Virus record (IMG/VR): IMGVR_UViG_3300028025_000092
Direction: 5' to 3' (one strand)
DNA: 64,000 nt
Origin: a virus
The position numbers and the translations under genes are program-made. Positions 1,434 to 53,722 of this stretch are shown piece after piece (within the stretch, counting starts at the first letter, position 1; each line of letters begins with the position of its first letter). Under the pieces are notes generated by a model that saw only the letters and a program-made list of their open reading frames with translations, did no database searches and was not told the DNA's origin.

Positions 1434-1754
1434 ATGGCACTACTATCAAGAAACGATATAGAAAAATATTCCTATTTTTTTGTTACAAAAAATAACAAAA
1501 GAACCCTTTCTAGAATATCATTAAGTGAATTTTTTGTTTATAAATTCGAAAATCCGGTAACAGAGCAAAGGGGGAAAGCGTATCTAACTGACGAATACGT
1601 TACTAATGTTTACGCAATGTCTGACGATTTTTACAAAAAGGAATCTTTCCTTCATCCCAAGTATACAAACCAAAAAAACCTACCAATATTATTTAAGTAC
1701 ACGGAACTGCCCGTGACTGAGGTTAGCGTGGAAATGAGCAGAACACTAAAATAA
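1434..1754 (+). CDS. Hypothetical protein
   Basis: 106-aa ORF filling the gap; no recognised motif. Confidence 0.7.
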   Translation: MALLSRNDIEKYSYFFVTKNNKRTLSRISLSEFFVYKFENPVTEQRGKAYLTDEYVTNVYAMSDDFYKKESFLHPKYTNQKNLPILFKYTELPVTEVSVEMSRTLK

Positions 1755-1758
1755 GCAT

Positions 1759-2556: not shown

Positions 2557-2586
2557 TTACGGTCTTATAATAACCGTGATTTTTTT
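2556..2586 (+). terminator. Putative intrinsic terminator
   Basis: ATTACGGT...ACCGTGAT stem followed by a T-run, right after the gp15 stop. Confidence 0.5.
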
Positions 2587-2590
2587 CGCT

Positions 2591-2598
2591 GATATATA
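2591..2598 (+). promoter_or_regulatory. Late promoter box GATATATA
   Basis: Exact recurrent motif 6 nt before ATG 2605. Confidence 0.65.
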
Positions 2599-2604
2599 GG
2601 AACA

Positions 2605-10852: not shown

Positions 10853-11425
10853 ATGGCAGGATTACCACATTATACATCTTCTAAGGCGGCGGTTAATAAA
10901 TTCGAACCGATTTTTACGAACCAGTTCGAGGTGTTAATCTCCCCACCTGCTGCTGTAGTAGCTCCGCAGGGGAATCCAAATAATGGAAACATCCTATTAG
11001 AACATGTAAAGAGTATAGAAGGATTAGGTGTTGACCAAAACCCTGGTGAAGTCTTTCAACAGTATAAAAACGCTAAAAGGTATTATGCAGGTGCTAAACC
11101 TCAACAAACCGGATTTGATTTAGGGATAAACTTTGAAGTCAATCTGGATGAAAATAACTCAATGTACGTTTTTAAAACAATGAGACAGTGGGCGGATTTA
11201 ATTTACAACCCACTTACAGGAGCTCTTGGCCTTAAAAAAGACTATACAGGAACTATAGTAATAAGTGTTTTTAATAAAGCTGGAGATGTTCATAGAAGAA
11301 TAACTTGTAAAGATTGTTTTATTATGACTCCTTTATCTCAAATGGATTTAAATTATACAAATCAAAGTTTATTTTCATTAAAGGTTCAATGGGCAGTTGA
11401 TTATTTTGATGACGTATTCTTATAA
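10853..11425 (+). CDS. gp19: Tail tube protein (gp19-like), paralog 1
   Basis: Follows the sheath; 190 aa; MRQWADLIYNPLTG...KKDY, and C-terminal MDLNY...VQWAVDYF are typical of gp19. Confidence 0.85.
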   Translation: MAGLPHYTSSKAAVNKFEPIFTNQFEVLISPPAAVVAPQGNPNNGNILLEHVKSIEGLGVDQNPGEVFQQYKNAKRYYAGAKPQQTGFDLGINFEVNLDENNSMYVFKTMRQWADLIYNPLTGALGLKKDYTGTIVISVFNKAGDVHRRITCKDCFIMTPLSQMDLNYTNQSLFSLKVQWAVDYFDDVFL

Positions 11426-11437
11426 TAAAATTAAAAA

Positions 11438-12016
11438 ATGGCAGGATTACCACATTTTACTAGTGCAAAAGCAGCAGTAAGTCTATACGAACCGGTATAC
11501 TTAAATCAGTTTGAGGTTATAATTCAACCACCCGCTGCGGTTTCCAATCCTGCAGGTAATGCTGGAAGAAGCTTATTGGTTGAAAATATCACCCAAATAT
11601 CTGGTCTAGAGGTTGACAAAACCCCAACACCAGTAGAGCAATTTTACAAATTTGCTAGAAGAAGATATGCAGGTGCTGGTGTAGATCAAACAGGGGTTAA
11701 ACTTAGAATCAACTTTCAAACCAATTTAGATGATAATAACTCCAATTATGTACACAAAACTTTAAGACAGTGGTCAGATTTAGTTTATAATCCTTTGACC
11801 GGTGCAATGGGGATTAAATCCAATTATGCTGGTGGTGCTTATGTTCTAGTTAGTATTTTTAATAAGCAAGGCGACGTTTTTAGAAGAATGAAATTCTTAA
11901 ATTGTTTCCCAACTAAAGCAATTGATCCTATGCCTTTAAGCTATGAGAACGTAGGGGGATTATACACAATTTCAGCAGAATTCAGAGCAGATTACTTTGA
12001 AGATGTGTTTAACTAA
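11438..12016 (+). CDS. gp19: Tail tube-like protein (gp19-like), paralog 2
   Basis: Clearly homologous to the previous ORF (MAGLPHFTS, NQFEVII.PPAAV, LRQWSDLVYNPLTGA, NCFPTKAIDPMPLSY). Confidence 0.85.
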   Translation: MAGLPHFTSAKAAVSLYEPVYLNQFEVIIQPPAAVSNPAGNAGRSLLVENITQISGLEVDKTPTPVEQFYKFARRRYAGAGVDQTGVKLRINFQTNLDDNNSNYVHKTLRQWSDLVYNPLTGAMGIKSNYAGGAYVLVSIFNKQGDVFRRMKFLNCFPTKAIDPMPLSYENVGGLYTISAEFRADYFEDVFN

Positions 12017-19690: not shown

Positions 19691-20245
19691 ATGCCAAACG
19701 TACTGTCAACTGACCCAAGATTTATTAGATATGCTAATTGTGATCCAGAAAAGCAGAAGAAAATAGTTTTCGAAGGATCTTTTTTAAAAATCATCATGGG
19801 ATCACAGGTATTAGACATGGTGGATCTTTCCAATTTTTTTCATCCAGCGTCCATAAACGGTGGGAGTTTTAAGAAAAGAGTTTATATTCCATCCGGGGGA
19901 TCTTATAATTTATATGGAGGAAATATTGCCCAGGATCAGGGAGAGGTTTCTATGATTGCTATTAGAGTAAAGTATGATCCATCCCTACCAGAGGTAGAAA
20001 AATTAATCTATTGGGAATACGAAGGAAATTTGTCACCGTGTAAAAATCTTTTATTTCTAACGGGTAAAACCCTTGATCATGTGAAACATCATGGATGGGA
20101 CTTGGAACCATATTCACCAGAGGCATCAACATTTTCCCCAGTATTAAGTCCGCAGCCAACATCACCAGATCTTAGCCTAGGCGGTATAGTACTTAAAAAT
20201 ACAACATTAAAAGAGGTTGAGGTAGAAATATTAGTAATGAATTAA
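19691..20245 (+). CDS. Putative virion structural protein (paralog of next ORF's N-terminal domain)
   Basis: Shares GEV.(F/M)..I.V.Y, (W/L)TG and GGIVL.N motifs with 20245-20877. Confidence 0.7.
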   Translation: MPNVLSTDPRFIRYANCDPEKQKKIVFEGSFLKIIMGSQVLDMVDLSNFFHPASINGGSFKKRVYIPSGGSYNLYGGNIAQDQGEVSMIAIRVKYDPSLPEVEKLIYWEYEGNLSPCKNLLFLTGKTLDHVKHHGWDLEPYSPEASTFSPVLSPQPTSPDLSLGGIVLKNTTLKEVEVEILVMN

Positions 20246-20877
20246 TGGCAACAGCACCACTTATATGTCAAGCAGATCTAGCAAACACCCTAATAGAAGG
20301 GGGACATTTCGACAAATGTACGCTGCTAGTAACCAAGGATTCAACTATAGTTAATTCGTTTAATTTCTGCGATTTCTCTTTGGACATTGATGAATTTTTC
20401 ACACAGAATTTAACGCTTGGACCTGGAAGTGCGTTTCTCCTCGACGATGGTGGCTTATCAAATTCTTTTGGTGAGGTTAAATTTCTCCTAATTAAAGTCA
20501 CATACCCGCAATCTTTCACAAAAGACAGCGACAAATACATCAATCTGGTACACGAAAATGTAACCTACCCAATCGGGGAATTACATGTTTGGACTGGAAA
20601 TCCTGGCGATTCAGCAGGAATGGGAATAGCAGTATCCCCTTCAGGAAGCCCACAATATAGTTCAGGCGGAATAGTGTTACATAATCCACACCTTAATTCA
20701 GTTAGTATTAAAATTATACTGGCATCAAGTGAGATTCAGGGAATTTATACTACTGCAGGGACAAGTGGAACATCGGGGGGTACTTCAGGATCATCTGGAT
20801 CATCCGGATCTAGCGGAATTGCAATTAATGCCGATTACTATGGAACTAGCGTTAATACAATAACAATACCAACATAA
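20245..20877 (+). CDS. Putative virion structural protein with C-terminal GTSGSS repeat
   Basis: Paralog of the previous ORF; short Gly-Ser/Thr triplet run. Confidence 0.7.
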   Translation: MATAPLICQADLANTLIEGGHFDKCTLLVTKDSTIVNSFNFCDFSLDIDEFFTQNLTLGPGSAFLLDDGGLSNSFGEVKFLLIKVTYPQSFTKDSDKYINLVHENVTYPIGELHVWTGNPGDSAGMGIAVSPSGSPQYSSGGIVLHNPHLNSVSIKIILASSEIQGIYTTAGTSGTSGGTSGSSGSSGSSGIAINADYYGTSVNTITIPT

Positions 20878-24571: not shown

Positions 24572-26353
24572 ATGTTTGAAAGTAAATTAAATAGGGGAAG
24601 AGCAAACGGCTACGCTCCATTAGATTCTGAAGGCAAAGTCCCTTTAGATAAAACATACGTTGGTGCTAATGGAACGTCCGGGGTATCTGGTACATCCGGA
24701 ACATCAGGAGCTCAGGGTTCTTCTGGTAATTCAGGTTCTTCGGGAACATCCGGAGAAACCGGTACTTCTGGTGAATCTGGTACTTCTGGTACTTCTGGGC
24801 AAAACGGTACTTCAGGAACATCGATCTTATTGGACTCTATTTTAACATTTAATGACAATACAATACAAGGCGGTAATATTGGTGCAACTGGAACTAAAAT
24901 CACAATAAATCAATCCTATAATGCACAAACCAGCATGAACGGTAATGGTGTATTGGTAACTAATAACCCAACAAACAGTCAGGTACAGGTTGGATGGATT
25001 GTTAGATTTTATGACAACACAGTAAGAACAGTAATAGGGGCATCTGTACCTGTTGGGCAAAGCTATTTTAATATTCAGATAGATTCTAATGTAAATATAG
25101 ATCCAGGTTATCCTCTAACCGTAGAAAGTCCAGATTACTTCGAAGGTGACGATCCTTTTGTAGAGATTAAAGCTGGGAATAACAGTTTAGTTTTAGCTAA
25201 TGATGGAATTACAACATTTCCGGGTAGTATACATAAAACAACAGACGCATCGATTATAGTAGGTTCATTCCCAGTAGCAGAGAATATTATAGTATATGGA
25301 ATAGACTATCAAGCACCATTTTGGCGTATGTTTTTTCTCAGCCCTGTATATCCCAATCTTGGTACAGATGTTACAGTAGGTACTACGGTAACTACAACTT
25401 GGGGTACACCAGTAACTGCTACAGTACAAGAGGTGATAGACGACACAGGGTCTTCCTTTTGGGTGTTTCTCGTTGATGAAGATGTGCTTACGGGATTTGT
25501 TGGTGCAACAGGTTTAACAGTTACATTTGGTAATATACCTAAAACCTGGACATTCGGCACAAGTGGCTTGCTAACCTTACCTAATGGTGATGTGATACCA
25601 GGTTCTGCCGTTAATGGTACATCAGGTACAAGTGGTAGTGATGGTACTTCGGGACAAAATGGAACATCAGGTGAATCTGGTACTTCGGGTGAATCTGGAA
25701 CTTCAGGTTCATCAGGTAGTGCGGGATCTTCAGGATCGTCGGGTTCTACAGGAACGTCGGGAGTTAATGGATCTTCGGGATCTTCAGGGCAATCCGGTGC
25801 TGTTGGAACATCAGGTACATCAGGAAGCGCAGGATCTTCTGGATCAACGGGTGCTTCTGGATCTTCAGGATCATCCGGGTTATCTGGTAGTTCAGGTTCA
25901 ACAGGAACTTCAGGTTCATCAGGAACTAGTGGAAGCACCGGATCTTCTGGTAGTTCAGGTTCAACAGGAACTTCAGGATCTACTGGGACATCAGGAACAG
26001 CAGGTACTTCTTTTAGCTCTCCCTATTCTGGAAATTTTAACGGAACCTCAGGACAGGCTTGGATTTCATCATACGGTGCTACTACCTCAATTAACTGGAA
26101 TAATAGCAACGTTCAAACACGAACTCTTGCAGCTAGCGAGACTTTTACTTTTGCAAATCCTAATAATGGTGCGACTTATATACTAATAGTAAGACAGGCA
26201 GCTGCCGGAAGTTATACCATCACTTGGCCGTCAGTTTCGTGGAGTGGCGGATCCGCTCCTACTATGACAGCTACTGCCAATAAATATGATGTCTATACAT
26301 TCGTGTATGCTAATAGCATCTATTATGGATCATATGTACAAAACTTCACATAA
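24572..26353 (+). CDS. Collagen-like (Gly-Ser/Thr-Ser) fibre protein
   Basis: N-terminal ANGYAPLDSEGKVP fibre motif, two long G-x-S triplet runs, C-terminal INWNNSNVQ...TITWPS.V.W..GSAPT...DVYTF module. Confidence 0.8.
   Translation: MFESKLNRGRANGYAPLDSEGKVPLDKTYVGANGTSGVSGTSGTSGAQGSSGNSGSSGTSGETGTSGESGTSGTSGQNGTSGTSILLDSILTFNDNTIQGGNIGATGTKITINQSYNAQTSMNGNGVLVTNNPTNSQVQVGWIVRFYDNTVRTVIGASVPVGQSYFNIQIDSNVNIDPGYPLTVESPDYFEGDDPFVEIKAGNNSLVLANDGITTFPGSIHKTTDASIIVGSFPVAENIIVYGIDYQAPFWRMFFLSPVYPNLGTDVTVGTTVTTTWGTPVTATVQEVIDDTGSSFWVFLVDEDVLTGFVGATGLTVTFGNIPKTWTFGTSGLLTLPNGDVIPGSAVNGTSGTSGSDGTSGQNGTSGESGTSGESGTSGSSGSAGSSGSSGSTGTSGVNGSSGSSGQSGAVGTSGTSGSAGSSGSTGASGSSGSSGLSGSSGSTGTSGSSGTSGSTGSSGSSGSTGTSGSTGTSGTAGTSFSSPYSGNFNGTSGQAWISSYGATTSINWNNSNVQTRTLAASETFTFANPNNGATYILIVRQAAAGSYTITWPSVSWSGGSAPTMTATANKYDVYTFVYANSIYYGSYVQNFT
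25615..26010 (+). repeat. Gly-X-Y (GTS/GSS) coding repeat
   Basis: Long run of degenerate 9-bp units such as ggatcttca/ggaacatca. Confidence 0.85.
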
Positions 26354-30002: not shown

Positions 30003-30045
30003 AGAGTTCGTTTCCGAAGGAATGGGAGACGAACTCTCTTTTTTT
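30003..30045 (+). terminator. Hairpin/terminator overlapping start of 30022 ORF
   Basis: AGAGTTCGTTTCC...GGAGACGAACTCT stem followed by a T-run. Confidence 0.7.
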
Positions 30046-30237
30046 GCGGGGGATCTTGCACAAACCATAGGTAAATTAAAAGAATTAGAAACATCCAGTC
30101 ACTCTAACAGTAAGATAGGATTAAAGACTATACAAGAAACCATTAAGAAACTTGAGGCTTTAGAGGAAGATATTTCTAGACAGATTGAAAAACTAGAAAA
30201 TAGCTTTGCAAACGAAAATAATTCACACCAAAACTGA
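30022..30237 (+). CDS. Small coiled-coil hypothetical protein
   Basis: 71 aa; stop overlaps the gp55 start (TGATG); start uncertain. Confidence 0.55.
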   Translation: MGDELSFFAGDLAQTIGKLKELETSSHSNSKIGLKTIQETIKKLEALEEDISRQIEKLENSFANENNSHQN

Positions 30238-30593
30238 TGGAGTATGTTAAAAACAAAGAGCTAAAAAGAGCATTATTGGAATCAAAAGAAAGTGGAAAAT
30301 TAACAGCGGAAACTGTTAAAATGTTCACATTGATAGTAAATGGACTTTCAAAAACCAAATCATATCGAGATATAGAGGATAAAGAAGACTGTATAGCATT
30401 TGGAATGGAGGATCTTATTAAATATTGGGATAGATTCGATCCTAATAAATCTGACAATCCTTTTGCTTTCATTTCACAAATTGCTAAAAACGGAATGCAG
30501 AAGGGATGGAAAAAAATACACTCAACAAGGTCTATAAAAACCATACCTTTCTCAAGACTCACTAGGGACGATAATCAAAATTATAATGTCTAA
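30237..30593 (+). CDS. gp55: Late transcription sigma factor (T4 gp55-like)
   Basis: YVKNKEL...KEDCIAFGMEDLIKYWDRFDPNKSDNPFAFISQIAKN parallels gp55 YVNNKEL...EMIADG.E...NFD....NP.AYITQ. Confidence 0.85.
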   Translation: MEYVKNKELKRALLESKESGKLTAETVKMFTLIVNGLSKTKSYRDIEDKEDCIAFGMEDLIKYWDRFDPNKSDNPFAFISQIAKNGMQKGWKKIHSTRSIKTIPFSRLTRDDNQNYNV

Positions 30594-31080
30594 GACAGAT
30601 ATAAAGAATGTTAAGCCTAACGGAAGATACAAATCCGGAAAATTCGTTCCAAGGAAACCTGAAAAATATATTGGAGATATTCATAATATAATTTATAGGT
30701 CTTCCTGGGAAGGGAGATTCTGCTTGTATTGTGATCAAAATCCTAATATTATTAAATGGTCATCAGAGCCCGTACAAATAGAGTATTGGAACCCTATAGA
30801 TAAAAAAACGCACACCTACCATCCAGACTACTACATAAAGGTTCAAAAAATAGACGGAAGCACTGAGGATTGGATTCTAGAAATTAAACCATCAGCTCAA
30901 TACCAATTAGAGAAAAAACCAGTATTGACTGGGGCATTAACAGAGAAAAGAATTAGATCACATAATGAACAGATGCAAACATGGATAGTAAATAGAGCCA
31001 AGTTTGATGCTGCTATGAAGTTTGCTAAGTTCAATGGTTATAAATTTGGTGCAATAGACGAAAAATTTATTTTTAGATAA
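30586..31080 (+). CDS. gp4: Head completion nuclease (gp4, TnsA-like)
   Basis: GKFVPRKPEKYIGD..NIIYRSSWE, WSSE, YHPDY, EIKP, VNRAKF.AA. Confidence 0.93.
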   Translation: MSKTDIKNVKPNGRYKSGKFVPRKPEKYIGDIHNIIYRSSWEGRFCLYCDQNPNIIKWSSEPVQIEYWNPIDKKTHTYHPDYYIKVQKIDGSTEDWILEIKPSAQYQLEKKPVLTGALTEKRIRSHNEQMQTWIVNRAKFDAAMKFAKFNGYKFGAIDEKFIFR

Positions 31081-31652
31081 TGGACTTTAAAAGGGAAATA
31101 AGAGATGCTATAGAAAAAGCAGGATCCCCAGCAAAATTATCGGAAGAAAGCTTTATCAATTATACTAATAATTATTCTGTTCTTAAATCGTCAGATTCTA
31201 TTAGAAGCCTAATACAGGGTAAAATTTATACTTTTTATTATAATTCAGAGGTAAAGGCAGAGAGAGGGTTTATAAACAGAAGACCTGTTATTTTTTTAGA
31301 CTCAAGGGAAATAACGCCATCTAAAAGTATTATTAAAGGATTAGATTTAATTCTAATAACACCGAGAGATAGAATAAATTTTTTTATTAGACTTCATTCA
31401 ATTTACGGTAAAATCATGGATCAAAACGACGGAAAAGAGGCAGCTTCACAGATGCCTTTAAGATTTGATCCCCAATTATTAGAAACTTTAATGGGAGGTA
31501 TCAAGTATAATCATGCATATACAGGTTATAAGATAGAGAAAATTAAGGGATTAAAGGAAATACCAAGAGACGAATGGAAGCATTTAGTTTACTTAAACAC
31601 TAAATCTATCGAGGGGGCTGCTATAGACGATATATACAATAAATACAAATAA
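31080..31652 (+). CDS. gp2: DNA end protector (gp2-like)
   Basis: GKIYTFYY, RRPVIF, GLDL..I.PRDR, EIPRDEW; synteny with gp4. Confidence 0.65.
   Translation: MDFKREIRDAIEKAGSPAKLSEESFINYTNNYSVLKSSDSIRSLIQGKIYTFYYNSEVKAERGFINRRPVIFLDSREITPSKSIIKGLDLILITPRDRINFFIRLHSIYGKIMDQNDGKEAASQMPLRFDPQLLETLMGGIKYNHAYTGYKIEKIKGLKEIPRDEWKHLVYLNTKSIEGAAIDDIYNKYK
31629..31636 (+). promoter_or_regulatory. Late promoter box GATATATA (inside gp2 3' end)
   Basis: Exact motif 15 nt before portal ATG 31652. Confidence 0.7.
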
Positions 31653-33289
31653 TGGCCGGATTTTTAGGAGACAATAGGGTTAATCCTTTTTTTAGTAACA
31701 TGCTAACCAATCTTAGAAAAATAGGATCGTTTGGCATGAGCTATGGAGACATGGTTGTTAAAAACTCACAAGCTGTGGGTACAACAGAGGCCTTATTCCT
31801 TAAAAATGGTGGAATAGAGGATGAAAATTTCCTATATTCAATCAGAAAGGCAGATACTACAGCTAAACAATACATAGCATATTTTGACCGGGATTATATT
31901 AACAAAAAAACATATCTTAGGAATTTTTCAATTAATCCCGAAATAGAATTTATTTTAGATACCGTTTGTGACGAGGCTATAGTTTATGATGATAAGAATT
32001 TTTTCTCATATTTTACCTCATTCGATGTTATGGGCATCGGGGAGGAAATAGAAAACAAAATACAAGATAGGTATAAGGAGATTTATAATCTTTTCGGATT
32101 TAATGAGGGGATTTCTGGTTGGCATTTCTTTAGAAGTTTTCTTATCGATGGTATTTTAGCATTTGAGATAGTATTTGATACAAGGGGTAAAAACATTATT
32201 GGGTTTAAGGAATTGGATCCTTCTTCCCTATTGCCATCAGTAGAAAAACAACAAGACGGTAGTTTTATTGAGTGTTGGATTCAATATCCTGATAATCCGG
32301 CTCTTTCAAGAAAGTTGTACGATTCACAAATTATCTATATTTCATATGCAAAAGGAAATACCACAACTAGGGTAAGCTACGTTGAAAGATTAATTAGATC
32401 TTTTAACCTGTTAAGAATTATGGAGCACACCAGAGTAATCTGGAACGTAATGAATTCATCATACAGATTAACCATGACAGTACCTGTTGGTACAAAATCT
32501 CCTCAGAAAGCAAAACAAAGTCTTGCTGAATTGATGAGCATCTATAAAGAAGATATAAGATTAGACTCTGACAGTGGAGAATTATTTGTGAATGGAAGAC
32601 CTAATATACAATTCTTTAAGAATTACCTAATGCCTTCCACTCCTAATGGAACTCCCGATATAACACCTTTAACCGGTAGTGGCGATGCTACCCCGTTTAG
32701 TGATTTAAAAGCATTAGCATACTTTGCAGATAAACTAAAATTAGATTCTAAAATTCCTTATTCTAGATTCGACAGAGAAGATAGGGGAACACAGGGAACA
32801 TTTAGTGGAAACGCAGAAGGACTAGATCAGGAAGAAATCAGATTTTTTAAATTTATTACTAGATTAAGATCTATCTTCCAAGACATATTACTTAAGCCAC
32901 TTTGGGTTCAATTCTGTTTAGATTATCCAGAACACAGAAAAGACTTTATGATTAAAAGTCAATTTGGATTAGATTATGTAAAAGACAATTCATTTGCAGA
33001 AACAAGATATATGGAAATCTTAAACGCAAGAAAGGACCAGGTAACAAAGATTGCTGGACTTTTAGATGCGGAGGGTAAACCGTATTTTTCCATTAAATAT
33101 GTGCTGGACAAATACCTTGGAATGACGGATGATGATAGATTAGCTAATCAGAATGCAAAAGATGCTGCCTTAAAAAAGAAGAAAGAGGAAGAAGAAAAAG
33201 CATCTAAAGAAGCGGGAACAGAAACACCTCCAGCAGAAGGCGAGGAAACTCCACCAGCAGAGGGTGAAGAAACAGAATTTAAATTATAA
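31652..33289 (+). CDS. gp20: Portal protein, paralog 1
   Basis: PEIEFILDTVCDEAIVYD, FRSFLIDG, ELDP, SYVERLIRSFNLLRIME, KLKLDSKIPYSRF, QEEIRFFKFITRLRSIF. Confidence 0.92.
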   Translation: MAGFLGDNRVNPFFSNMLTNLRKIGSFGMSYGDMVVKNSQAVGTTEALFLKNGGIEDENFLYSIRKADTTAKQYIAYFDRDYINKKTYLRNFSINPEIEFILDTVCDEAIVYDDKNFFSYFTSFDVMGIGEEIENKIQDRYKEIYNLFGFNEGISGWHFFRSFLIDGILAFEIVFDTRGKNIIGFKELDPSSLLPSVEKQQDGSFIECWIQYPDNPALSRKLYDSQIIYISYAKGNTTTRVSYVERLIRSFNLLRIMEHTRVIWNVMNSSYRLTMTVPVGTKSPQKAKQSLAELMSIYKEDIRLDSDSGELFVNGRPNIQFFKNYLMPSTPNGTPDITPLTGSGDATPFSDLKALAYFADKLKLDSKIPYSRFDREDRGTQGTFSGNAEGLDQEEIRFFKFITRLRSIFQDILLKPLWVQFCLDYPEHRKDFMIKSQFGLDYVKDNSFAETRYMEILNARKDQVTKIAGLLDAEGKPYFSIKYVLDKYLGMTDDDRLANQNAKDAALKKKKEEEEKASKEAGTETPPAEGEETPPAEGEETEFKL

Positions 33290-33295
33290 TAATAA

Positions 33296-34987
33296 ATGGC
33301 AGGATTCATAGATAATTTTTCCCAGAGAAACCCCAACATGGGACGTATACTAAGGACTGTGAGTAAAATCGGATCTTTCGGGATGGAGTATAAGGATCTT
33401 GTTGTGAAAAATTCTCAAGCTATAGGGGTTTCAGAAGCTGCTATGAGACAAAAATTATCTCTGACAGATTCAGATGAGGATTTTATTTTCAATCTGGCTG
33501 CCCAAGACACATCAAATAGAAAATACATTGCTTATTTTGATAAAGATTACCCATTCAAAAGAGATTTTTTAAGAAGCTTTGCGTTAAATGCTGAGATCGA
33601 ATGGATTTTAGATATTCTAGCAGACGAAGCTATTGTTTATGATGATAGAAATTTTTGTTGTAATCTTTCCCTAGTTAATCTTGATTTAAAGGATGAAGTA
33701 GCGGATTCTTTAAGAGAAAATTTTAGAAAGATATATGTTTCTCATGGATTCAATAATGGTATTTCTGCATGGCAATATTTTAGACAATTTCTAATAGATG
33801 GATTTTTATCATTTGAAATTGTTTATTCTGATACTGGAAAACAGATAGTAGGATTTAAAGAATTAGACCCGACGTCTCTAACCCCTTCTATAGAAAGAGG
33901 ACCCGGCGGGGAAGCAGTCCAAATTTGGTATCAATATTTCAATGATAGTGTTAGGGAAAGAAAACTTTATGATGCACAGGTAATATACATTTCTTTTGCG
34001 AAAGGAAACACAACATCAAGAACAAGTTATGTTGAGAGATTAATCAGATCTCACAATCTTTTAAAAATTATGGAGCATACCAGAATTATCTGGAATGTTA
34101 TGAACGCATCATTTCGTCTTAAAATGACAATTCCTGTGGGATCAAGATCGCCGCAGAAAGCCAAAGAAACCCTTGGTGAATTAATGACCATGTATAAGGA
34201 AGATATAAAACTTAATACAGACTCAGGAGAATTAAGTGTTAACGGAAGACCAAATTTACAATTTTATAAAAACTATCTTTTTCCTGTACAAGGTGGGGAA
34301 TCACCTAAGATAGAGACAATTAATAGTGGAGGACCTAATTTAAACGTGATAGATGCTGTTGTTTATTTCTTTAATAAGTTAAAGGCAGATTCTAAAATTC
34401 CATTTAATAGATTCGCTGCTAGATCGGGTGGAACTGTTGGTACTTATAAAATAGGCGCAGAATCTGCAGAGAGAGACGAAATTAGATACAACAAGTTCAT
34501 TAATAGAATTAGATCAATCTACCAGGAGATATTACTAAAGCCCCTTTGGATTCAAATGACTTTGGATCATCCAGAATTGGACAACGATCCTGTTTTTAGA
34601 TCACAATTAGGTGTTAAATTTAACTCCGATAATCAATTCGGTGAATCTAAAGAAATCGAACAACTTATCAAAAAGATTGATTTTATATCAGGATTATCCG
34701 AAATTAAAGAAAAGAAGGGGGATGAAGAAATTCCATATTTCAGCCAAGACTTCCTAATAAATAAATTCTTAGATCTAACGAACGAGGATAAGAGGGTCAA
34801 TAGCATTTATAAAAAGAAAGAGGAAGAAGAAGGTAAAGAAGCAGCTGCAGCAGAACCTGCAGCGGGTAGTACTACACCTTCTGCTACCCCAGAGGCTACC
34901 CCAGCAGCTGAACCGGCAGCTGAACCAGCAGCTGAACCAGCAGCAGAGCCAGCGGCAGCTGAACCGGCACCAGAAGCCGCACCATAA
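33296..34987 (+). CDS. gp20: Portal protein, paralog 2, with AEPA-repeat tail
   Basis: Same portal motifs over the full length (RDEIRYNKFINRIRSIY); diverged from paralog 1. Confidence 0.92.
   Translation: MAGFIDNFSQRNPNMGRILRTVSKIGSFGMEYKDLVVKNSQAIGVSEAAMRQKLSLTDSDEDFIFNLAAQDTSNRKYIAYFDKDYPFKRDFLRSFALNAEIEWILDILADEAIVYDDRNFCCNLSLVNLDLKDEVADSLRENFRKIYVSHGFNNGISAWQYFRQFLIDGFLSFEIVYSDTGKQIVGFKELDPTSLTPSIERGPGGEAVQIWYQYFNDSVRERKLYDAQVIYISFAKGNTTSRTSYVERLIRSHNLLKIMEHTRIIWNVMNASFRLKMTIPVGSRSPQKAKETLGELMTMYKEDIKLNTDSGELSVNGRPNLQFYKNYLFPVQGGESPKIETINSGGPNLNVIDAVVYFFNKLKADSKIPFNRFAARSGGTVGTYKIGAESAERDEIRYNKFINRIRSIYQEILLKPLWIQMTLDHPELDNDPVFRSQLGVKFNSDNQFGESKEIEQLIKKIDFISGLSEIKEKKGDEEIPYFSQDFLINKFLDLTNEDKRVNSIYKKKEEEEGKEAAAAEPAAGSTTPSATPEATPAAEPAAEPAAEPAAEPAAAEPAPEAAP
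34849..34984 (+). repeat. 12-bp AEPA coding repeat in portal 2 C-terminal tail
   Basis: gcagctgaacc(g/a) units. Confidence 0.8.
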
Positions 34988-37318: not shown

Positions 37319-37807
37319 ATGGGAGAACAAACACATAATACCGGAAAGATAGTTATAGTTGGAAGAGGAGGATCCGGTAAAGATTTTTTAAGGAAAAAAT
37401 TTGAGGATAGGGGATTTAAATACTGTGTATCCTATACAAGCAGACCTATCAGAGAAGGAGAAGAAGACGGGAAGGATTATAGATTCACCTCGATAGAATA
37501 TTTTGATAATAACTTCTCGGATTTCTACGAAATAGATAAATTCAATGGATGGAAATATGGCACATTAATTAAAGATTTCAACGATTCAAATCTTTTCATA
37601 ATGACACCAAGAGGTGTTAATAATATCAAAGGGGAAGATCGTAAAAAATGCTTTGTCATATTTATAGATCCACCTAGAGAAATTATAAAAGAAAGATTAA
37701 CACAAAGAAAAGATGCTGATTCTGCAGACAGAAGAATAGACGCAGATGATAAGGATTTTTTCGAATTTTCAAACTATGATATGAGAATATCAAATTCAGA
37801 CTTTTAA
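37319..37807 (+). CDS. gmk: Guanylate kinase-like
   Basis: GRGGSGKD, VSYTSRPIREGEEDGKDYRF, WKYGT. Confidence 0.9.
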   Translation: MGEQTHNTGKIVIVGRGGSGKDFLRKKFEDRGFKYCVSYTSRPIREGEEDGKDYRFTSIEYFDNNFSDFYEIDKFNGWKYGTLIKDFNDSNLFIMTPRGVNNIKGEDRKKCFVIFIDPPREIIKERLTQRKDADSADRRIDADDKDFFEFSNYDMRISNSDF

Positions 37808-39384: not shown

Positions 39385-41934
39385 ATGAAAGAAATAACAG
39401 ATTTAACTATAAACTCCGTATCATCAGCAGGTGCAAATTTCGGGTTAATAGCTGACCAAAATTTTAGCCAAATAAAAGATGCGATAAATCTTCTCCAGTC
39501 TACTTTTGGTATAACTATTGAAATACCTGGATTTGATTCACAAAATTCAAATTTTTTATTAAATAGGGTAAATGCAAATGCCATAAAACTTCCAACCACG
39601 GGAGCAGTTAAAATAGGTCTAGATGGTGCTAATGGGGGTATTACAGGTTCTTCTTTCAATGTTACTAATAATGCATATGTTGGTGGGGATTTACTTCTTT
39701 ACAACAAAAACGGTACAGGCGGTAGAGTAAAATTTAGGGTAGACAGAAACACAGAGGTAACCAAACCAGCAGAACCAGGAGATGTTAGATTTACTGGTAA
39801 TGCGTTTCAGGGATATGTTTATCAAGGAGATGTTTCTTCTAAATTTGTTTTTTCTATAAACTCTGGTGTATCTGGAGGAACTATAAGCGTAGTATTTAAT
39901 GGTACTACAATCACAACAACAACATGGCAGGGTTCAGTTTATCAAACCGGACTAAAAATCGTTGCTGATATACTTGCAATAGACACTACTTTATATCCGA
40001 TTAAAGCATCATCTGATACAACTTCGGTAACTGTAGAGTCTTTACCCGGATATTCAGCTGCTCTTAATGGCGCAACAGTAGGATTAACATCCTCTAATAT
40101 TTCAGTTACCCCATCTTCGGGGGAAATGCTGGGAGGAATAGAAGGTGCTAAATCCTGGGTAAATTTCAGTGGATATATTGGATCCACTGGTGCAACAGGA
40201 CCTGCAGGACCTACGGGAACAACCGGACCTACCGGTCCTCCTAACGGACCAACTGGACCTTCCGGAACCTCAGGATCATCAGGACGCTCTGGGACATCGG
40301 GATCTAGCGGATTAAGTGGATCCAGCGGGATATCGGGATCTTCAGGTACTTCAGGAACTATGGGTCCAACTGGACCAACGGGGGACGGAGGATCACAGGG
40401 ACCGAGGGGTGTGACTGGAGCAGCGGGAACCTCTGGAATAAACGGAACATCGGGATCTAGCGGAAGTACAGGAACATCAGGATCATCCGGAACATCGGGA
40501 ACATCGGGATCTTCAGGGACTAGCGGATCTAGCGGTACCTCTGGTGCGAACGGAACCTTCGGAACATCAGGTACAACGGGTACATCCGGATCAAGCGGAA
40601 GTACGGGAACGTCGGGATCGTCCGGAACAAACGGAACATCGGGATCAAGCGGAAGTACAGGAACGTCGGGATCTTCTGGATTAGCAGGTGACCGATATTC
40701 ATCTGAAGCATTTTTTGTAGATAGCGGACATACAACTCAATTATCATTAAATCTTAGCACGGTAACTTTAGGATCTACAATTTATTTTAATACCAACGAA
40801 TTAAATCTTGCATATACCATAGCACAAAGTGTTATTGTAGCAGTAGATGAATCTAATTTTATAGCGGGAAACGTACTCTCATATAATGAGACAAATGGGG
40901 AGATGTCAGTTTTAGTTACTGACGTAGAGGGAACATCAACTTACCCAGCAGGTGAATTTTTAGCAATGAATCTAGATGGTGCAGTTGGTCCTTCTGGATC
41001 ATCGGGAACTTCTGGATCATCAGGAACTTCAGGGTCTAGTGGAAGAACAGGATCTTCAGGATCTTCAGGATCAACCGGCACCTCCGGAACATCAGGTGCT
41101 GATGGATCTTCAGGATCTTCTGGATCTTCAGGATCTTCTGGATCAACTGGCACCTCAGGAACATCAGGTGCTGATGGATCTTCAGGATCTTCTGGATCTT
41201 CTGGATCTTCAGGAGTGAACGGATCCTCAGGATCTTCAGGATCTTCGGGGGTATCAGGATCTTCCGGATCTTCCGGAGCAAGCGGTACGTCTGGAACCTC
41301 AGGAGCTAATGGTGCTGCTGGATCTTCTGGAACCTCAGGAGCTAATGGTGCTGCTGGATCTTCTGGAACCTCAGGAGCTAATGGTGCTGCAGGATCTTCC
41401 GGGACATCGGGCGCTAATGGTGCTGTCGGATCCTCTGGAACATCGGGTGTTGGTGGTGCAAGTGGAACTTCAACACAGGTTGCATTTTTTACCGGAACAA
41501 CAACTCTAGGATCTGACTCTGGATTATATTGGGACAACACCAACAAGAGATTAAGTATAGGAGCAGGTACAAACCCAGCCTATCCTCTAGAAGTTGAGGG
41601 TAACGTTTCCAATATTTCAATCTATGCAGATTTTGATATTGCTGCTTTCTCCGATATTTCAGTTAAGGAAAATATAGAAGAAATATCAAACGCTATAGAA
41701 AAAATAAAGGAAATAAGAGGAGTAACCTTTACGAGAAAAGACTCAGAGGATAAAGCTAGAAGAGCTGGGGTTATTGCACAGGAGGTTCAAAAAGTTCTTC
41801 CAGAAGTTATAACAGAAAAAGAGGACGGAACCTTAATGGTTTCTTACGGGAACTTAGCTTCCCTGTTGATACAAGCAATTAAAGAACAACAGGTTAAAAT
41901 AGAGGAATTAGAATCAATAATAAAGAAGAGATAG
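39385..41934 (+). CDS. Collagen-like tail fibre with C-terminal peptidase S74 intramolecular chaperone
   Basis: Two long Gly-X-Y runs; C-terminal SDISVKENI...IRGVTF...GVIAQEVQKVLPE...VSYGNL..LLIQAIKEQQ. Confidence 0.88.
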   Translation: MKEITDLTINSVSSAGANFGLIADQNFSQIKDAINLLQSTFGITIEIPGFDSQNSNFLLNRVNANAIKLPTTGAVKIGLDGANGGITGSSFNVTNNAYVGGDLLLYNKNGTGGRVKFRVDRNTEVTKPAEPGDVRFTGNAFQGYVYQGDVSSKFVFSINSGVSGGTISVVFNGTTITTTTWQGSVYQTGLKIVADILAIDTTLYPIKASSDTTSVTVESLPGYSAALNGATVGLTSSNISVTPSSGEMLGGIEGAKSWVNFSGYIGSTGATGPAGPTGTTGPTGPPNGPTGPSGTSGSSGRSGTSGSSGLSGSSGISGSSGTSGTMGPTGPTGDGGSQGPRGVTGAAGTSGINGTSGSSGSTGTSGSSGTSGTSGSSGTSGSSGTSGANGTFGTSGTTGTSGSSGSTGTSGSSGTNGTSGSSGSTGTSGSSGLAGDRYSSEAFFVDSGHTTQLSLNLSTVTLGSTIYFNTNELNLAYTIAQSVIVAVDESNFIAGNVLSYNETNGEMSVLVTDVEGTSTYPAGEFLAMNLDGAVGPSGSSGTSGSSGTSGSSGRTGSSGSSGSTGTSGTSGADGSSGSSGSSGSSGSTGTSGTSGADGSSGSSGSSGSSGVNGSSGSSGSSGVSGSSGSSGASGTSGTSGANGAAGSSGTSGANGAAGSSGTSGANGAAGSSGTSGANGAVGSSGTSGVGGASGTSTQVAFFTGTTTLGSDSGLYWDNTNKRLSIGAGTNPAYPLEVEGNVSNISIYADFDIAAFSDISVKENIEEISNAIEKIKEIRGVTFTRKDSEDKARRAGVIAQEVQKVLPEVITEKEDGTLMVSYGNLASLLIQAIKEQQVKIEELESIIKKR
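40180..41470 (+). repeat. Gly-X-Y (GPT/GTS/GSS) repeats, including 36-bp GANGAAGSSGTS units, interrupted by a ~100-aa globular domain
   Basis: Visible 9-, 36- and 72-bp periodic duplications. Confidence 0.85.
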
Positions 41935-43391: not shown

Positions 43392-44099
43392 ATGTCGATA
43401 GAGAGAATAAGGAGAAGAATACCGATGCCTGAGGATTTCCCAAAAAAATCACAGGATTTAGTCCCCCCGCAAAAATATACAAACAGACCCATAGAATCCT
43501 ATAAACAATTTATAGGACTTCACAAAGAACAATCATTTGTGATATGTGCGTGTGGATCTTCGTTAAACGATTATACAGATTTTAACAATCATATAACTAT
43601 AGGTGTTAATGATTCAGGCACTAAGGTGTGGTGCAAATATCTCGTTGTAGTTAATGAGCCTAAAACATTTAAATGGAACAGATGGCCATCAGTTAGAATG
43701 AATAACTCTGATTTTGTTTTTACCCATCTCGCTGATTTACCGATTGACAATCCAGATGGAAGAAGAATAGTTGTAAATCTTGGAAAATACGAAGGACTGG
43801 ATCTTGATAATTATGGATCTATAGATTACACAACAAATTCTCCTTACATGGCTATTATTATAGCTTATCAAATGGGTGCTAGAAAAATAGCTTTAGTTGG
43901 TGTTGATTTTACCCCCAACCATTTTTTTGCAGAGACTGGAGATCATATTATTATGAGGGAAATAGAAAGGGTAAAAGAGCAATATTCAAAATTAGGAAGG
44001 GCCTTGATCGAAAAAGGAATTAGAATTGCTAACCTCTCACAGACAAGCTTAATTGAATCCTGGCCCAAAATGACCCTGGATCAATTTGAAACTCTCTAA
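43392..44099 (+). CDS. Maf/DUF115-like (GT29/GT42-related) glycosyltransferase
   Basis: FVICACGSSL, ITIGVND, MAIIIAYQMGARKIALVGVDF, IANLS. Confidence 0.7.
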   Translation: MSIERIRRRIPMPEDFPKKSQDLVPPQKYTNRPIESYKQFIGLHKEQSFVICACGSSLNDYTDFNNHITIGVNDSGTKVWCKYLVVVNEPKTFKWNRWPSVRMNNSDFVFTHLADLPIDNPDGRRIVVNLGKYEGLDLDNYGSIDYTTNSPYMAIIIAYQMGARKIALVGVDFTPNHFFAETGDHIIMREIERVKEQYSKLGRALIEKGIRIANLSQTSLIESWPKMTLDQFETL

Positions 44100-49868: not shown

Positions 49869-51950
49869 ATGAGTCTTAACCCCGAATTCGTTTTAGTCTT
49901 GGAAAAATCTTCACACAATCTGAAGACCGAGAAAAGTGGTAACGAATACTATCTGGAAGGTATTGCAGCAGTTTTTGGTAAAGAAAACTCTAATCAAAGA
50001 ATATATGAGGAAAGAGAATATCTTCCTCATCTTCAATATTTAAAAGAAAAGATCGAACAAAAAAGATTGGTAGGTGAGTTAGACCATCCTAAGGAATTTG
50101 ACGTTTCCCTTAAAAACATTTCTCACCTAGTTGAGGAATTAGCATACAATCAAGGGGACAGAACCTTAAGAATTAAAGTAAAGCTTTTAGACACACCAGC
50201 AGGTAAAATTGCTAAATCTTTAGTTGATGCAGGTATTCCTGTTTCTATTTCTTCAAGAGCAGCAGGTAACGTAATGGAAAACAAAAAAGTACAGATTAAA
50301 AAGATCTTTACTTATGATCTAGTAGCTGATCCTGGATTCGAAAATGCACAATTAGAAAGAGTTTATGAAAGTCTTGGTTACAATTTAGAAGAAAAAAGTA
50401 TGGCTGAATCCATCCTAAAGGGTCTTCCTCTTATGAACGAAAGTTTAGGATTAGAAAATGATTCTAATTTTAAGATATATAGAATTAACGATCAAGAAAA
50501 AATACAAAAGCTTCTAGATAAGGAGCCAAATAAGAGTTTAATCATGGAAAATAATTTCGTTACAGCGGAAGAAATGAACGGATATTCTAGACTAATCAAA
50601 AAAGAAATGGATACTATTAAAGGATCCATTGAGTCTTTGAAGGGTGTTAAAGAATCTTCCAAAATAACAGAATCTTCCTCTCTTGAAGAGAGAGTATTAA
50701 AATTAGAAAAGTATGCTGATTATTTAGCAGAGAATTTAGAGGCTTCTATTAAGTATGGTGAATACCTAGCAGAAAACCTAGAAGACTCTGTTTCTTACTC
50801 AAAGTATTTAGCAGAAAATCTAGACAAGTCTATATCTTATGGAAAATATCTAGCAGAGCATCTAGACAATAACATTTCTTATTCCGAATATATTGCAGAA
50901 AATGTAGACACGAACATGACAGCAGTTAAAGGTTTAACAGAAAAAGTTGATCAATCTATTGCTTATGCAGAATATGTAGGAGAGAACGTAGATAAAAACA
51001 TTAGATACAGTGAGTATCTAGCAGAAAACCTAGATAAGAACATTTCTTACTCTGAGTACTTAGCAGAAAATGTTGACAAGAACATTTCTTACTCTGAGTA
51101 TTTAGCAGAAAACTTAGATAAAGGTTTAGCTTATTCTGAATACCTAGCAGAAAACCTAGACAAGAACATTTCTTACTCTGAGTACTTAGCAGAAAACTTA
51201 GATAAAGGTTTAGCTTATTCTGACTACCTAGGAGAAAATTTAGATAAGACTGTACATTACAGCGAATATATTGCAGAAAAACTATCTAACAATATTAGTT
51301 ATGCAGAATACATTGCAGAATCTGTAAATGCATCTTCAGGAACTAAAGAAGTTAAAGAAGCAGTAGTTAAAGCAGTTTCCGAGAGCGCAAACACTTCAGG
51401 ATTTGCAGGTAACTACACCGGAATTTCCAACAAAATCGACGATTTATTAAATACTGTCAGTAAACAAAAGACAGATGAAATAGCAGAAAATAAGAACTAT
51501 CCTTTCTTAAAGCTTATGGGCGAACAAGGACAAAGAGAATTCCTATCACTGCACGAAGGCCAAAAACAAAAGGTCGCAAAATCCTTAAACGAAAACAATT
51601 ATTCATCCGAAAAAGAAGTAATTGAACTTATGGGTAAAGCCTTGGTTGAACAAAATCAATCCGGCGAAAAATTCCTAGATCTAATGCCAGAAAAATATAG
51701 AACTTCATGGGAAATGATGACAGAGTCACAAAAGGCTTCAGTTATCGCTCAAAGCAAGTTTCATAAATTGGACACCCCTTATCAAATCCAGAATTTCTGG
51801 GCTACCAGAGGTATTTCAGTTACAAAGGCAAATATCGAAAGAATAGACGAATCCCAAAATCAAACAATCTCAGCCCCTCAGCCAAAAGGAGTTTCTAGAG
51901 AATATCTAGATAATCTTTCAGAAGCTTTAGGAGCTAGATTTAAAAAATAA
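49869..51950 (+). CDS. gp21: Prohead protease (gp21) fused to repeat-containing scaffold/core domain
   Basis: YLEGI...NSNQRIY, GELDHP, ISH, LDTPAGKI, ISSRAAG, TYDLVADPGFENA; then 14-aa repeats. Confidence 0.92.
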   Translation: MSLNPEFVLVLEKSSHNLKTEKSGNEYYLEGIAAVFGKENSNQRIYEEREYLPHLQYLKEKIEQKRLVGELDHPKEFDVSLKNISHLVEELAYNQGDRTLRIKVKLLDTPAGKIAKSLVDAGIPVSISSRAAGNVMENKKVQIKKIFTYDLVADPGFENAQLERVYESLGYNLEEKSMAESILKGLPLMNESLGLENDSNFKIYRINDQEKIQKLLDKEPNKSLIMENNFVTAEEMNGYSRLIKKEMDTIKGSIESLKGVKESSKITESSSLEERVLKLEKYADYLAENLEASIKYGEYLAENLEDSVSYSKYLAENLDKSISYGKYLAEHLDNNISYSEYIAENVDTNMTAVKGLTEKVDQSIAYAEYVGENVDKNIRYSEYLAENLDKNISYSEYLAENVDKNISYSEYLAENLDKGLAYSEYLAENLDKNISYSEYLAENLDKGLAYSDYLGENLDKTVHYSEYIAEKLSNNISYAEYIAESVNASSGTKEVKEAVVKAVSESANTSGFAGNYTGISNKIDDLLNTVSKQKTDEIAENKNYPFLKLMGEQGQREFLSLHEGQKQKVAKSLNENNYSSEKEVIELMGKALVEQNQSGEKFLDLMPEKYRTSWEMMTESQKASVIAQSKFHKLDTPYQIQNFWATRGISVTKANIERIDESQNQTISAPQPKGVSREYLDNLSEALGARFKK
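50474..50481 (+). promoter_or_regulatory. Intragenic late promoter box GATATATA upstream of in-frame ATG 50544
   Basis: Exact motif at the protease/scaffold boundary. Confidence 0.5.
50710..51325 (+). repeat. 42-bp (14-aa) tandem repeat YSEYLAENLDKNIS
   Basis: About 13 degenerate copies in the scaffold domain. Confidence 0.92.
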
Positions 51951-51964
51951 CATTTTTATAGAAA

Positions 51965-53722
51965 ATGCAACTTATCAATCAACATGAAATCTATGATACC
52001 TGGGCACCAATCTTGGAAAGCAAAACAGGTATTCAAGAGAGAGGTAAATTAGACTGGTTAACTAAATACTGTCATTACCACTCATTAAACGAATCTGCCG
52101 GAGCGTATAACTCTTTAGGCGTATTAAACGGTATGGGCCAAGTATCTCCTGCTTCTAACGTAGGTTTAAACGGCGGTCCTGCTGGATTCTATGCAGGCGG
52201 ATCTTATTCTGGAACTGGTCTTGGTTCTGGCGATAAATTCCCTTCTCTTTTACCTTTAGCTATTCAAGTAGCTGCTAAAACAGTAGGTTTTGATATCGTT
52301 CCAGTTATCCCAATGAGCGGTCCTACAGGCGTATTATCATACTTAGACTATGTTTACGCAGGTGGTAAATTATCTGGTACTGACTCTGTATCTCCATACA
52401 CAGCAAACACTCCAGATCTAATCAAAGTTCCAACAACAACAGCTTCTCCTGTTACTGGTTTAACAGTAGGATCTACTTACCTTTTAGGTGCTTCTGGTCT
52501 TTCTTCAACAAAAGATTTAGACTCTGCAGGTGTAGGTGCTTTAGTAGCTGGTAAATTCGTTGGTAACTCAAGAATTGATGGCTTCCCAATTTTCCAAGTA
52601 GTAGCAATCACAACTGGTTTCTCAATTGCTGCAGCTATCGACGCAGACGCAGTTATCTACTCTGGTTCATTCGTAACCTCAACAAACGTTTACACAATCT
52701 CTGCTACAGTAGGTTATGCAAATGGTGCTGCTCAATTAGTTAAAACTTTAGAAGATCACGTACAAGGATTTACTGGTCTTGGAACTGCTAACGACGGTAC
52801 ATGGTCTGGTCCTTATGTAGACGGTACTAAAGCTTACGATCCAATGTCAAGAGGAACTGCTGAAAGCACTTACTTCAAATCATTAGGTCTTTCTACATTT
52901 ACTAAATTTGTAGAAGCTGGTACTTTCCAAGTTGCTGCTTCTGTTACAACTGAGCAAATCCAAGATTTAAACAAGCAATTCGGTATCGACGTAGTTTCTA
53001 TGATCGAGAACGCACTTGTTAATGAGGTTTCTCAGTCTATCAACAAGCACATCTTATCTAGAGCATTTGCTTTAGGATGGTCTAACCACTATGAATTTGC
53101 AAACACCGAATTAGGTGGAGCATCTTCTGCTTCTCTAAACATCAACTTAAAAATTGGTGCTGGTGGAGCTTCAACCGCATCTTTCATCGGTAAGGACAAT
53201 GGATCTTTAACAATCTATACTCCTGGCGATATCGCTACAGGCGGATACGAGAACCAATCAACTGTACAAAGAAGATTATTCTCAAGAATCTTGGCTGCTG
53301 CTAACGTAGTAGCAAACAGAGGAAGAAGAGGACCTGCTAACTTTATTGTTACTAACGCTCAAGTAGCTTCTGCTTTACAAGATATCTCTCAATTCACATT
53401 TGCTCCTTTCACAAACACGTTAACTCAAAATAACGGTACTTTATATCCAGTTGGTTCAATCGCTGGTATGACCGTTTATGTTGATCAAAACATGTCTTTC
53501 GGCGATACGAGAGTATTGGTTGGAAGAAAAGGTGCTGATGACGAACCAGGTATGAAATTTATGCCTTACATGATGGCTGAGTCAATTCAGACTATCTCTG
53601 AAGGTACAATGTCACCTAAAATTGCAGTTAAGTCTAGATACTCTTTAGTAGAGGCTGGACATCATCCTCAAACGATGTACTTATGCTTTAAAGCTATAGT
53701 GCCTGCAACTGGTATCGCTTAA
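51965..53722 (+). CDS. gp23: Major capsid protein
   Basis: WAPILE, VPVIPMSGPTG, EQIQDL..QFGID, NEVSQSINK, RGRRGPANFIVTNAQVASAL, FMPY, PKIAVKSRY. Confidence 0.95.
   Translation: MQLINQHEIYDTWAPILESKTGIQERGKLDWLTKYCHYHSLNESAGAYNSLGVLNGMGQVSPASNVGLNGGPAGFYAGGSYSGTGLGSGDKFPSLLPLAIQVAAKTVGFDIVPVIPMSGPTGVLSYLDYVYAGGKLSGTDSVSPYTANTPDLIKVPTTTASPVTGLTVGSTYLLGASGLSSTKDLDSAGVGALVAGKFVGNSRIDGFPIFQVVAITTGFSIAAAIDADAVIYSGSFVTSTNVYTISATVGYANGAAQLVKTLEDHVQGFTGLGTANDGTWSGPYVDGTKAYDPMSRGTAESTYFKSLGLSTFTKFVEAGTFQVAASVTTEQIQDLNKQFGIDVVSMIENALVNEVSQSINKHILSRAFALGWSNHYEFANTELGGASSASLNINLKIGAGGASTASFIGKDNGSLTIYTPGDIATGGYENQSTVQRRLFSRILAAANVVANRGRRGPANFIVTNAQVASALQDISQFTFAPFTNTLTQNNGTLYPVGSIAGMTVYVDQNMSFGDTRVLVGRKGADDEPGMKFMPYMMAESIQTISEGTMSPKIAVKSRYSLVEAGHHPQTMYLCFKAIVPATGIA

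Follow-up and report, generated by a model that had tools for sequence, protein, structure and literature searches.

Two conserved, diverged gp20-type portal genes in tandem in an uncultured T4-like jumbo phage clade suggest a DNA-entry ring with two kinds of subunit

The 64,000-nucleotide stretch of viral DNA analyzed here, IMG/VR virus record IMGVR_UViG_3300028025_000092 (the window, in whose coordinates positions are given unless another record is named), carries two adjacent portal genes on its plus strand. Portal paralog A lies at 31652-33289 and encodes a product of 545 amino acids (aa), and portal paralog B lies at 33296-34987 and encodes a product of 563 aa. Among the machines of tailed phages and herpesviruses, none is more conserved than the portal, and models of assembly, packaging, and DNA gating turn on its 12-fold symmetry and on how this is mismatched with a vertex and a motor of 5-fold symmetry and a tail of 6-fold symmetry. 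To our knowledge, the portal is a homo-oligomer of one gene product in every case studied. The presence of two portal genes at this locus suggests that the DNA-entry ring combines two different subunits.

An earlier note on this DNA, made from the sequence alone, had described the two genes as full-length, clearly diverged tandem portal paralogs, neither of them disrupted, which share the motifs SYVERLIRS and NGRPN.QF.KNYL and end in different low-complexity tails. This description was borne out in each respect. The two open reading frames (ORFs) contain no internal stop codon or frameshift, both motifs are present in both products, and a BLASTP alignment of A with B gives 50% identity over 505 aa with 9 gap positions. 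The tail of A carries ETPPAEGE twice and ends in EFKL, while that of B is an (AEPA)n tract encoded by tandem 12-nucleotide (nt) DNA repeats at 34827-34979 on the plus strand. Both products match the Pfam family PF07230 (Portal_T4) far above its gathering score of 22.9, with 224.6 bits for A and 218.5 bits for B, and cover most of its 433 profile positions (7-428 and 9-424, respectively). Both also match the portal family PHROG 213 (expectation values, E, of 5.6e-65 for A and 1.1e-61 for B), and both match T4 gp20 chains in the PDB by sequence. When we searched AlphaFold2 (AF2) monomer models of A and B with Foldseek, T4 gp20 chains were the top match for both (E ~4e-19, probability 1.00, template modeling score ~0.45-0.58), with portals of other phages ranking next. 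The secondary structure predicted for both products fits the wing, stem, clip, and crown layout of gp20. By hidden Markov model (HMM), PDB sequence match, and fold, A and B are bona fide gp20 portals of the same family as T4 gp20 (PF07230; PDB entries 3JA7, 6UZC, 9MKB, 9LU6, and 9LU7), and both genes are confirmed as intact.

The pair is universal among the sampled members of a clade. Taking 63% identity of a portal to A or B as the lower limit for clade membership, and scanning the IMG/VR loci that reach it for portal ORFs, we found both genes in the A-then-B order in 97 loci (some contigs were fetched twice). A further 7 clade loci show the end of the partner gene in a short flank, either an EFKL or EFTL terminus before B or a MAGFI start after A, and 3 are uninformative because the contig ends within 2 nt. 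No clade locus lacking the partner portal was found among the 104 informative loci. The clade loci together hold 42 distinct full-length A sequences and 57 distinct full-length B sequences. Since the ordered pair recurs across many metagenomes, in about 100 loci with identities of 63-100%, the chimeric assembly that the earlier note had raised as a concern is excluded. The only apparent disruption among the loci is in a 5-kilobase (kb) contig (L139; gene at 1527-3161), where a single in-frame TAG replaces a conserved Ser codon in A; the frame is otherwise intact through the conserved EFKL end, and the TAG is no sign of decay, but could be a recent single-nucleotide nonsense variant, an assembly error, or the assembly of a minor allele.

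Outside this clade, only single portals were found. Forty loci of a separate group, with portals ~45-47% identical to A and to B alike, carry one portal each, and 27 of them extend at least 1.5 kb on both sides of it. The closest deposited phages are the huge, uncultured LR756500 (43% identity), LR756504, LR756501, and LR756503, with Lak phages at ~35%. Deposited phage records with a gp20-type match to A number 1522, and no second full portal copy was found among them; the three complete huge-phage genomes searched (LR756500, LR756501, and LR756504) have one full portal each. Two match places occur only in LR756501 and LR756503, two records of the same length with the same hit coordinates. The second place in LR756501 (15166-15351; L007) was considered as a candidate second portal and rejected, as it is just an isolated 101-aa ORF, ~57 kb from the full portal, that matches only the C-terminal part of the gp20 portal profile (positions 374-431).

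A maximum likelihood tree, built by quick search from representatives of A (20 sequences), B (19), and the single-copy portals (10) and supported by the Shimodaira-Hasegawa-like approximate likelihood ratio test (SH-aLRT) only, recovered A and B as two conserved clades, each monophyletic with SH-aLRT 100 and with matching internal topologies. The stems that follow the duplication are long and nearly equal, at 0.89 for A and 0.86 for B. A single-copy sequence on a long branch (L047) joins the A and B clades in one group with support 98, and the remaining single-copy lineages lie outside this group. The two fully supported clades, their matching topologies, and their symmetric stems point to a single duplication, and the pair thus goes back to one ancient tandem duplication of a gp20-type portal gene at the base of the clade. 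Gene conversion between A and B was considered and rejected: no tract was seen in the window, where the best DNA shared by the two genes is 300 nt at 74% identity.

Both copies are under strong and equal purifying selection. For within-clade pairs with a synonymous divergence (dS) below 1.5, Nei-Gojobori ratios of nonsynonymous to synonymous divergence (dN/dS) are 0.014-0.024 for A and 0.026-0.039 for B, so that neither copy shows relaxed selection anywhere in the range of 0.014-0.039. In 45 loci the order gp4-gp2-A-B-ligase-clamp loader is conserved, with A and B each showing higher conservation than the genes beside them. In 29 genomes, with branch lengths fitted on a fixed FastTree topology, the total tree lengths of A (2.42) and B (2.46) are the lowest of the six syntenic genes. 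To compare rate histories, we took Spearman correlations of residual branch lengths after regression on the other genes, over 46 branches and 15 gene pairs. A and B show the highest value of the 15 pairs (rho 0.64); the gp2-like gene gives rho 0.62 with A and with B, and the ligase gives 0.56 with the clamp loader; either portal against the ligase or the clamp loader yields only 0.09-0.23. A and B have changed rate in step with one another and with the gp2-like head protein, and not with the adjacent replication genes. This shared history fits a common structure.

We then compared A and B residue by residue, using published T4 portal domain limits for the mapping (PMC4493910). The alignment of the cores has 526 columns. 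In 171 of them A and B conserve the same residue, and in 38 each paralog has a fixed residue of its own. These 38 are densest in the clip, which holds 11 of them, especially in A 327-349, a segment that aligns to the inner clip loop and the channel loop of T4, while other fixed differences fall at the boundary of the tunnel loop with alpha-8 and in the crown. Some of the 38 are opposed in charge, as with D336 of A and K338 of B or D441 of A and K441 of B. When the 38 are polarized against 27 single-copy sequences, A has the ancestral state at 8, B at 12, and neither paralog at 18. As judged from these alignments, divergence was complementary, with both copies having moved instead of one alone.

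The core of A is the more derived at deeply conserved channel sites. The equivalent of T4 T349 is Thr in 24 of the 27 single-copy outgroups and in B (T341), and Pro in A (P339). T4 T349 corresponds to T319 of SPP1, and when that residue is mutated, packaging and the stimulation of the ATPase are impaired (PMC4493910). In the Arg-Asp pair at the tunnel-loop base, the equivalent of T4 R398 is Arg in 27 of 27 outgroups and that of D399 is Asp in 24 of 27; B keeps this canonical Arg-Asp (R393-D394), and A has Gln-Glu (Q393-E394). At the C-terminus, it is A that keeps the ancestral state. Single-copy portals have an acidic or Gly-rich tail with a hydrophobic tip (for instance, GGDIDF or GEQFEL), which A retains as E-F-K/T-L (33230-33289), whereas B ends in a longer Ala/Pro/Glu repeat that varies and lacks a conserved tip. 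The acidic tail and hydrophobic tip of A and of the single-copy portals resemble partner-binding acidic C-terminal tips. The consensus sequences of both paralogs conserve a clip-tip segment, K-SPQKAK, that aligns (a placement by alignment only) to T4 N291-K296. In T4, N291, M292, R295, and K296 contact the terminase gp17 and the gp13 adaptor (PMC4493910, PMC12929587). The clip tip that docks the terminase and the neck in T4 appears in this way to be kept in both A and B.

The two genes are also tightly joined in their expression context. Six nucleotides (TAATAA, 33290-33295, plus strand) separate the stop of A from the ATG of B, and in all 27 distinct junctions of the clade this gap is 2-8 nt, most commonly 3. 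Upstream, and likewise on the plus strand, 30237-30593 encodes a gp55-like late sigma factor, 30586-31080 a gp4-like head-completion nuclease, and 31080-31652 a gp2-like DNA-end protector. The stops and starts of these genes overlap up to the ATG of A, so that 30237-34987 holds five consecutive genes with overlapping or 6-nt junctions. The gp55-, gp4-, and gp2-like genes probably form one transcription unit with A and B. The sole plus-strand terminator-like site of the scanned region (30024-30038) lies upstream of this block, and the scan found no such site between A and B. Promoter-like matches occur at the level of chance (22 found, 20.8 expected) and the T4 late-promoter motif TATAAATA is not enriched, although these scans may not fit the promoter type of the host. 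On these grounds, a promoter of its own for B or a terminator between A and B was rejected. The leaders of A and B that we looked at are A/T-rich and without a Shine-Dalgarno motif at the usual spacing. Together with the 2-8 nt gaps, such leaders suggest that A and B may be made in roughly equal amounts by termination-reinitiation, and they would fit a host of the Bacteroidota type.

An all-against-all search of the window revealed only one other strong tandem pair, and it, too, probably belongs to the DNA conduit. Directly after the tail sheath gene (7462-10812, plus strand, 1116 aa, single copy in the window) lie T1 (10853-11425, 190 aa) and T2 (11438-12016, 192 aa), both on the plus strand and 52.6% identical in their products. 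T1 and T2 match PHROG 32623, match tail-tube PHROGs only weakly (E ~3-5e-5), and have no Pfam match, and a profile of the T1/T2 family matches T4 gp54 (E 5.8e-6) and gp19 (E 0.012). It is on account of this profile match that we call them tail-tube-fold proteins, and they most likely form the tube itself. The same tandem tube pair is present in five of five long two-portal contigs. Only one tube homolog each was found in the three complete genomes of single-portal huge phages and in three contigs from the nearest group with a single portal. In the tube tree, T1 and T2 group together (support 80/88), apart from the single-copy tubes, with T2 forming a well-supported derived clade on a long stem and T1, the more ancestral-like of the two, having almost no stem. 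Both the portal and the tube duplications are specific to the clade of the window.

No wider doubling of structural genes was found. In a 245-kb relative (G002, IMGVR_UViG_3300032331_003609; CheckV completeness 86%, 263 ORFs), the only full-length pairs near 50% identity are the portal (50.7%) and tube (52.1%) pairs. Genome-wide pairing of structural genes was rejected, as 53825/54948 and 47250/55810 have no similarity (E >=0.5). A weak tandem pair is found at 19691-20877 in the window (184 and 210 aa, 26.6% identity over 124 aa, E 2e-5) and again at 133053-134269 in G002, with no PHROG matches. G002 also carries four neighboring genes of 461-481 aa on its minus strand (69827-76086), which make up two paralog pairs (35.7% and 30.5% identical).

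In the reading that we favor, an ancient tandem duplication of the portal gene would have been followed by retention of both copies as essential portal subunits. A and B would be co-transcribed and probably translationally coupled, would be made in similar amounts, and would alternate in one dodecamer at a single portal vertex. Such an A6B6 ring would have true six-fold instead of twelve-fold symmetry, with six B subunits keeping the canonical DNA-channel residues, six A subunits contributing altered channel loops and placing the ancestral C-terminal tip inside the head, and all twelve keeping the clip tip for terminase and neck docking. That A and B co-assemble into a mixed, probably alternating A6B6 ring seems to us about as probable as all the other explanations taken together. 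We infer the co-assembly, its stoichiometry, and any link to the six-fold neck, tail, and tube. Co-expressed paralogs from a homomeric ring usually still cross-assemble, as do those of the proteasome, CCT, MCM, and RuvBL1/2, and a mixed ring is favored for this reason, as well as because only one set of capsid genes seems to serve the head, because both copies keep all parts of a portal, and because their divergence is complementary and not one-sided. The earlier note had proposed either a heteromeric (for example, 6+6) portal or two specialized rings, and its reading is partly supported: between these, the tight coupling, equal constraint, and rate covariation, along with the complementary divergence, favor one mixed ring indirectly. 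A more elaborate version, in which an obligate, alternating A6B6 hetero-dodecamer would have co-evolved with the two-protein tube so that the whole conduit is paired and six canonical and six modified loops gate the DNA, is more tentative, and we would put it somewhat short of an even chance.

Several points weigh against a mixed ring. Every portal characterized to date is, as far as we know, a homo-oligomer. Two separate rings in one virion, or neighboring genes that recombine as a unit, would also be expected to show covarying rates and to be inherited together. The enrichment of fixed differences in the clip is modest, at 11 of 78 clip columns compared to 38 of 526 columns overall, and the co-duplication of portal and tube comes from a single clade and is effectively one evolutionary event. 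The AF2 models are of moderate confidence, with a mean predicted local distance difference test score of 62 (A) and 64 (B), the wing being confident and the clip and stem weakest.

No domain is missing from either paralog and the clip tip is kept in both, so that a ring of A or of B alone is conceivable, and the two may make up two separate homo-dodecamers with divided roles. One could be a prohead initiator or scaffold organizer and the other the packaging and ejection portal, or the two could be alternative portals for different particles or conditions; the ancestral C-terminal tip found in A only and the canonical channel Thr and Arg-Asp found in B only possibly speak for distinct jobs. However, an icosahedral head has one portal vertex, and the window holds single genes for the major capsid protein (51965-53722), the prohead protease (49869-51950), and the large terminase TerL (5563-7371), all on the plus strand. 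The earlier note had also entertained a second portal-bearing vertex, for which these single genes offer no specific support, although a distant vertex paralog could be missed. With genes coupled at 2-8 nt, A and B should be synthesized almost equally, a waste if one of the rings were left unincorporated; equal tree lengths and covarying rates better fit one shared structure, and co-expressed ring paralogs that are 50% identical would need evolved barriers to mixing. Separate rings are thus an unlikely account in our view, albeit one with some weight. We are more doubtful still that one copy took on a new role outside the portal vertex, for instance as a neck or DNA-conduit ring or as an internal head component, and left the other as the sole portal. 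The replacement in A of near-invariant residues conserved in T4 (Pro for the T349 equivalent, Gln-Glu for the R398-D399 equivalents) would suit such a role, and the doubled tube gene hints at remodeling of the conduit, but the stems are symmetric and the derived states are spread across both copies, where a new function would typically accelerate one side only. Both copies retain the wing, stem, clip, and crown along with the docking clip tip, and A and B score equally well against the gp20 HMM.

That the two copies are simply redundant, or kept for dosage, would agree with both looking fully functional and lying in one operon. Copies that are 50% identical at dN/dS 0.01-0.04 throughout a deep clade, with not a single loss, are nevertheless abnormal for redundant genes, 38 paralog-specific differences are fixed at otherwise conserved sites, and a need for dosage is implausible where twelve portal subunits per virion suffice; we consider this explanation improbable. 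The least credible account, to which we give almost no weight, is an artifact, either an assembly chimera of two co-occurring strains or a live gene beside a pseudogene. The data are metagenomic, and L139 has its in-frame TAG in A. Against this stand the recurrence of the ordered pair in many samples and across wide divergence, the congruence of the A and B trees, the dN/dS values, the intact frames, and the lack of any identical DNA tract shared by two copies that are 50% identical, while the stop in L139 is a single codon change. Both the chimera and the pseudogene were rejected on this basis.

A mixed A6B6 ring would have parallels outside the viruses. Hetero-oligomeric rings arose from duplicated homomeric ancestors in the proteasome (alpha and beta), CCT, MCM2-7, RuvBL1/2, and the V-ATPase c-ring. 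The likeness lies in a duplicated ring subunit, both versions of which are retained under strong constraint, are co-expressed, and have diverged in a complementary manner. We know of no hetero-oligomeric ring derived by duplication that has been documented for a viral portal.

Among phages, the comparison to T4 extends to gene context, with gp55-, gp4-, and gp2-like genes upstream and with TerL, sheath, and tube in T4 order. T4 differs in having one portal gene, the product of which forms a homo-dodecamer, whereas the clade of the window has two 50%-identical genes per genome, and the equivalents of T349 and R398-D399 are replaced in A. The closest deposited relatives, LR756500, LR756501, and LR756504 (462-735 kb) along with the Lak phages, have portals that are 33-46% identical; the tube genes of the three named genomes are homologous, but each genome has one full portal and one tube homolog, unlike the clade of the window. 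In the T4 neck, gp20 and gp13 are 12-mers and gp14 is a 6-mer, which places the 12-to-6 step below the portal, and arms of gp13 insert between adjacent portal clip helices (PMC12929587). Where a dodecameric portal meets a six-fold neck and tail, an A6B6 ring would offer two alternating clip environments. The symmetry step of T4 is made by separate neck proteins beneath a homomeric portal, and a step built into the portal, together with a two-protein tube, would be an attractive if tentative idea here. The T4 contractile system likewise has several tube-fold proteins, gp19 with gp48, gp54, and gp3, and the T1/T2 profile matches two of these; T1 and T2 are, however, far closer to each other than T4 gp19 is to its initiator and terminator paralogs. 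Neck genes are weakly identified in the window, with 2605-4761 matching PF11649 at 22.5 bits, below the cut-off of 25.

If A and B do share one ring, it would be the first portal known from two gene products, with the symmetry of the ring lowered from 12-fold to 6-fold. A lineage that has long kept two portal subunits, with complementary changes at residues of the T4 and SPP1 channel, would then be a natural experiment that could reveal the number of canonical subunits required by a portal and any function of a reduced symmetry. The defined A/B sequence pairs can be used for co-expression and cryo-electron microscopy without phage culture. In the full-text literature, where coverage is incomplete (few subscription journals) and absence is thus unproven, we found no description of portal paralogs, of two portal genes, or of a hetero-dodecameric phage portal.

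Beyond these subjects, the window shows the portal pair to lie in a T4-like late or morphogenesis region, in a head and packaging context, with genes for a DNA ligase, a gp44-like clamp loader, a guanylate kinase, and a 5'-3' exonuclease on the 3' side of B. Collagen-repeat, tail-fiber-like genes are found at 24572-26353 and 39385-41934, and the GC content of the bins that hold them is 0.40-0.45, compared to ~0.34 elsewhere. PHROG matches further identify three auxiliary genes, namely a guanylate kinase (37319-37807, plus strand), a sialyltransferase-like gene (43392-44099, plus strand), and a gene on the minus strand (60085-61569) whose family is named ribosomal protein S6 glutaminyl transferase.

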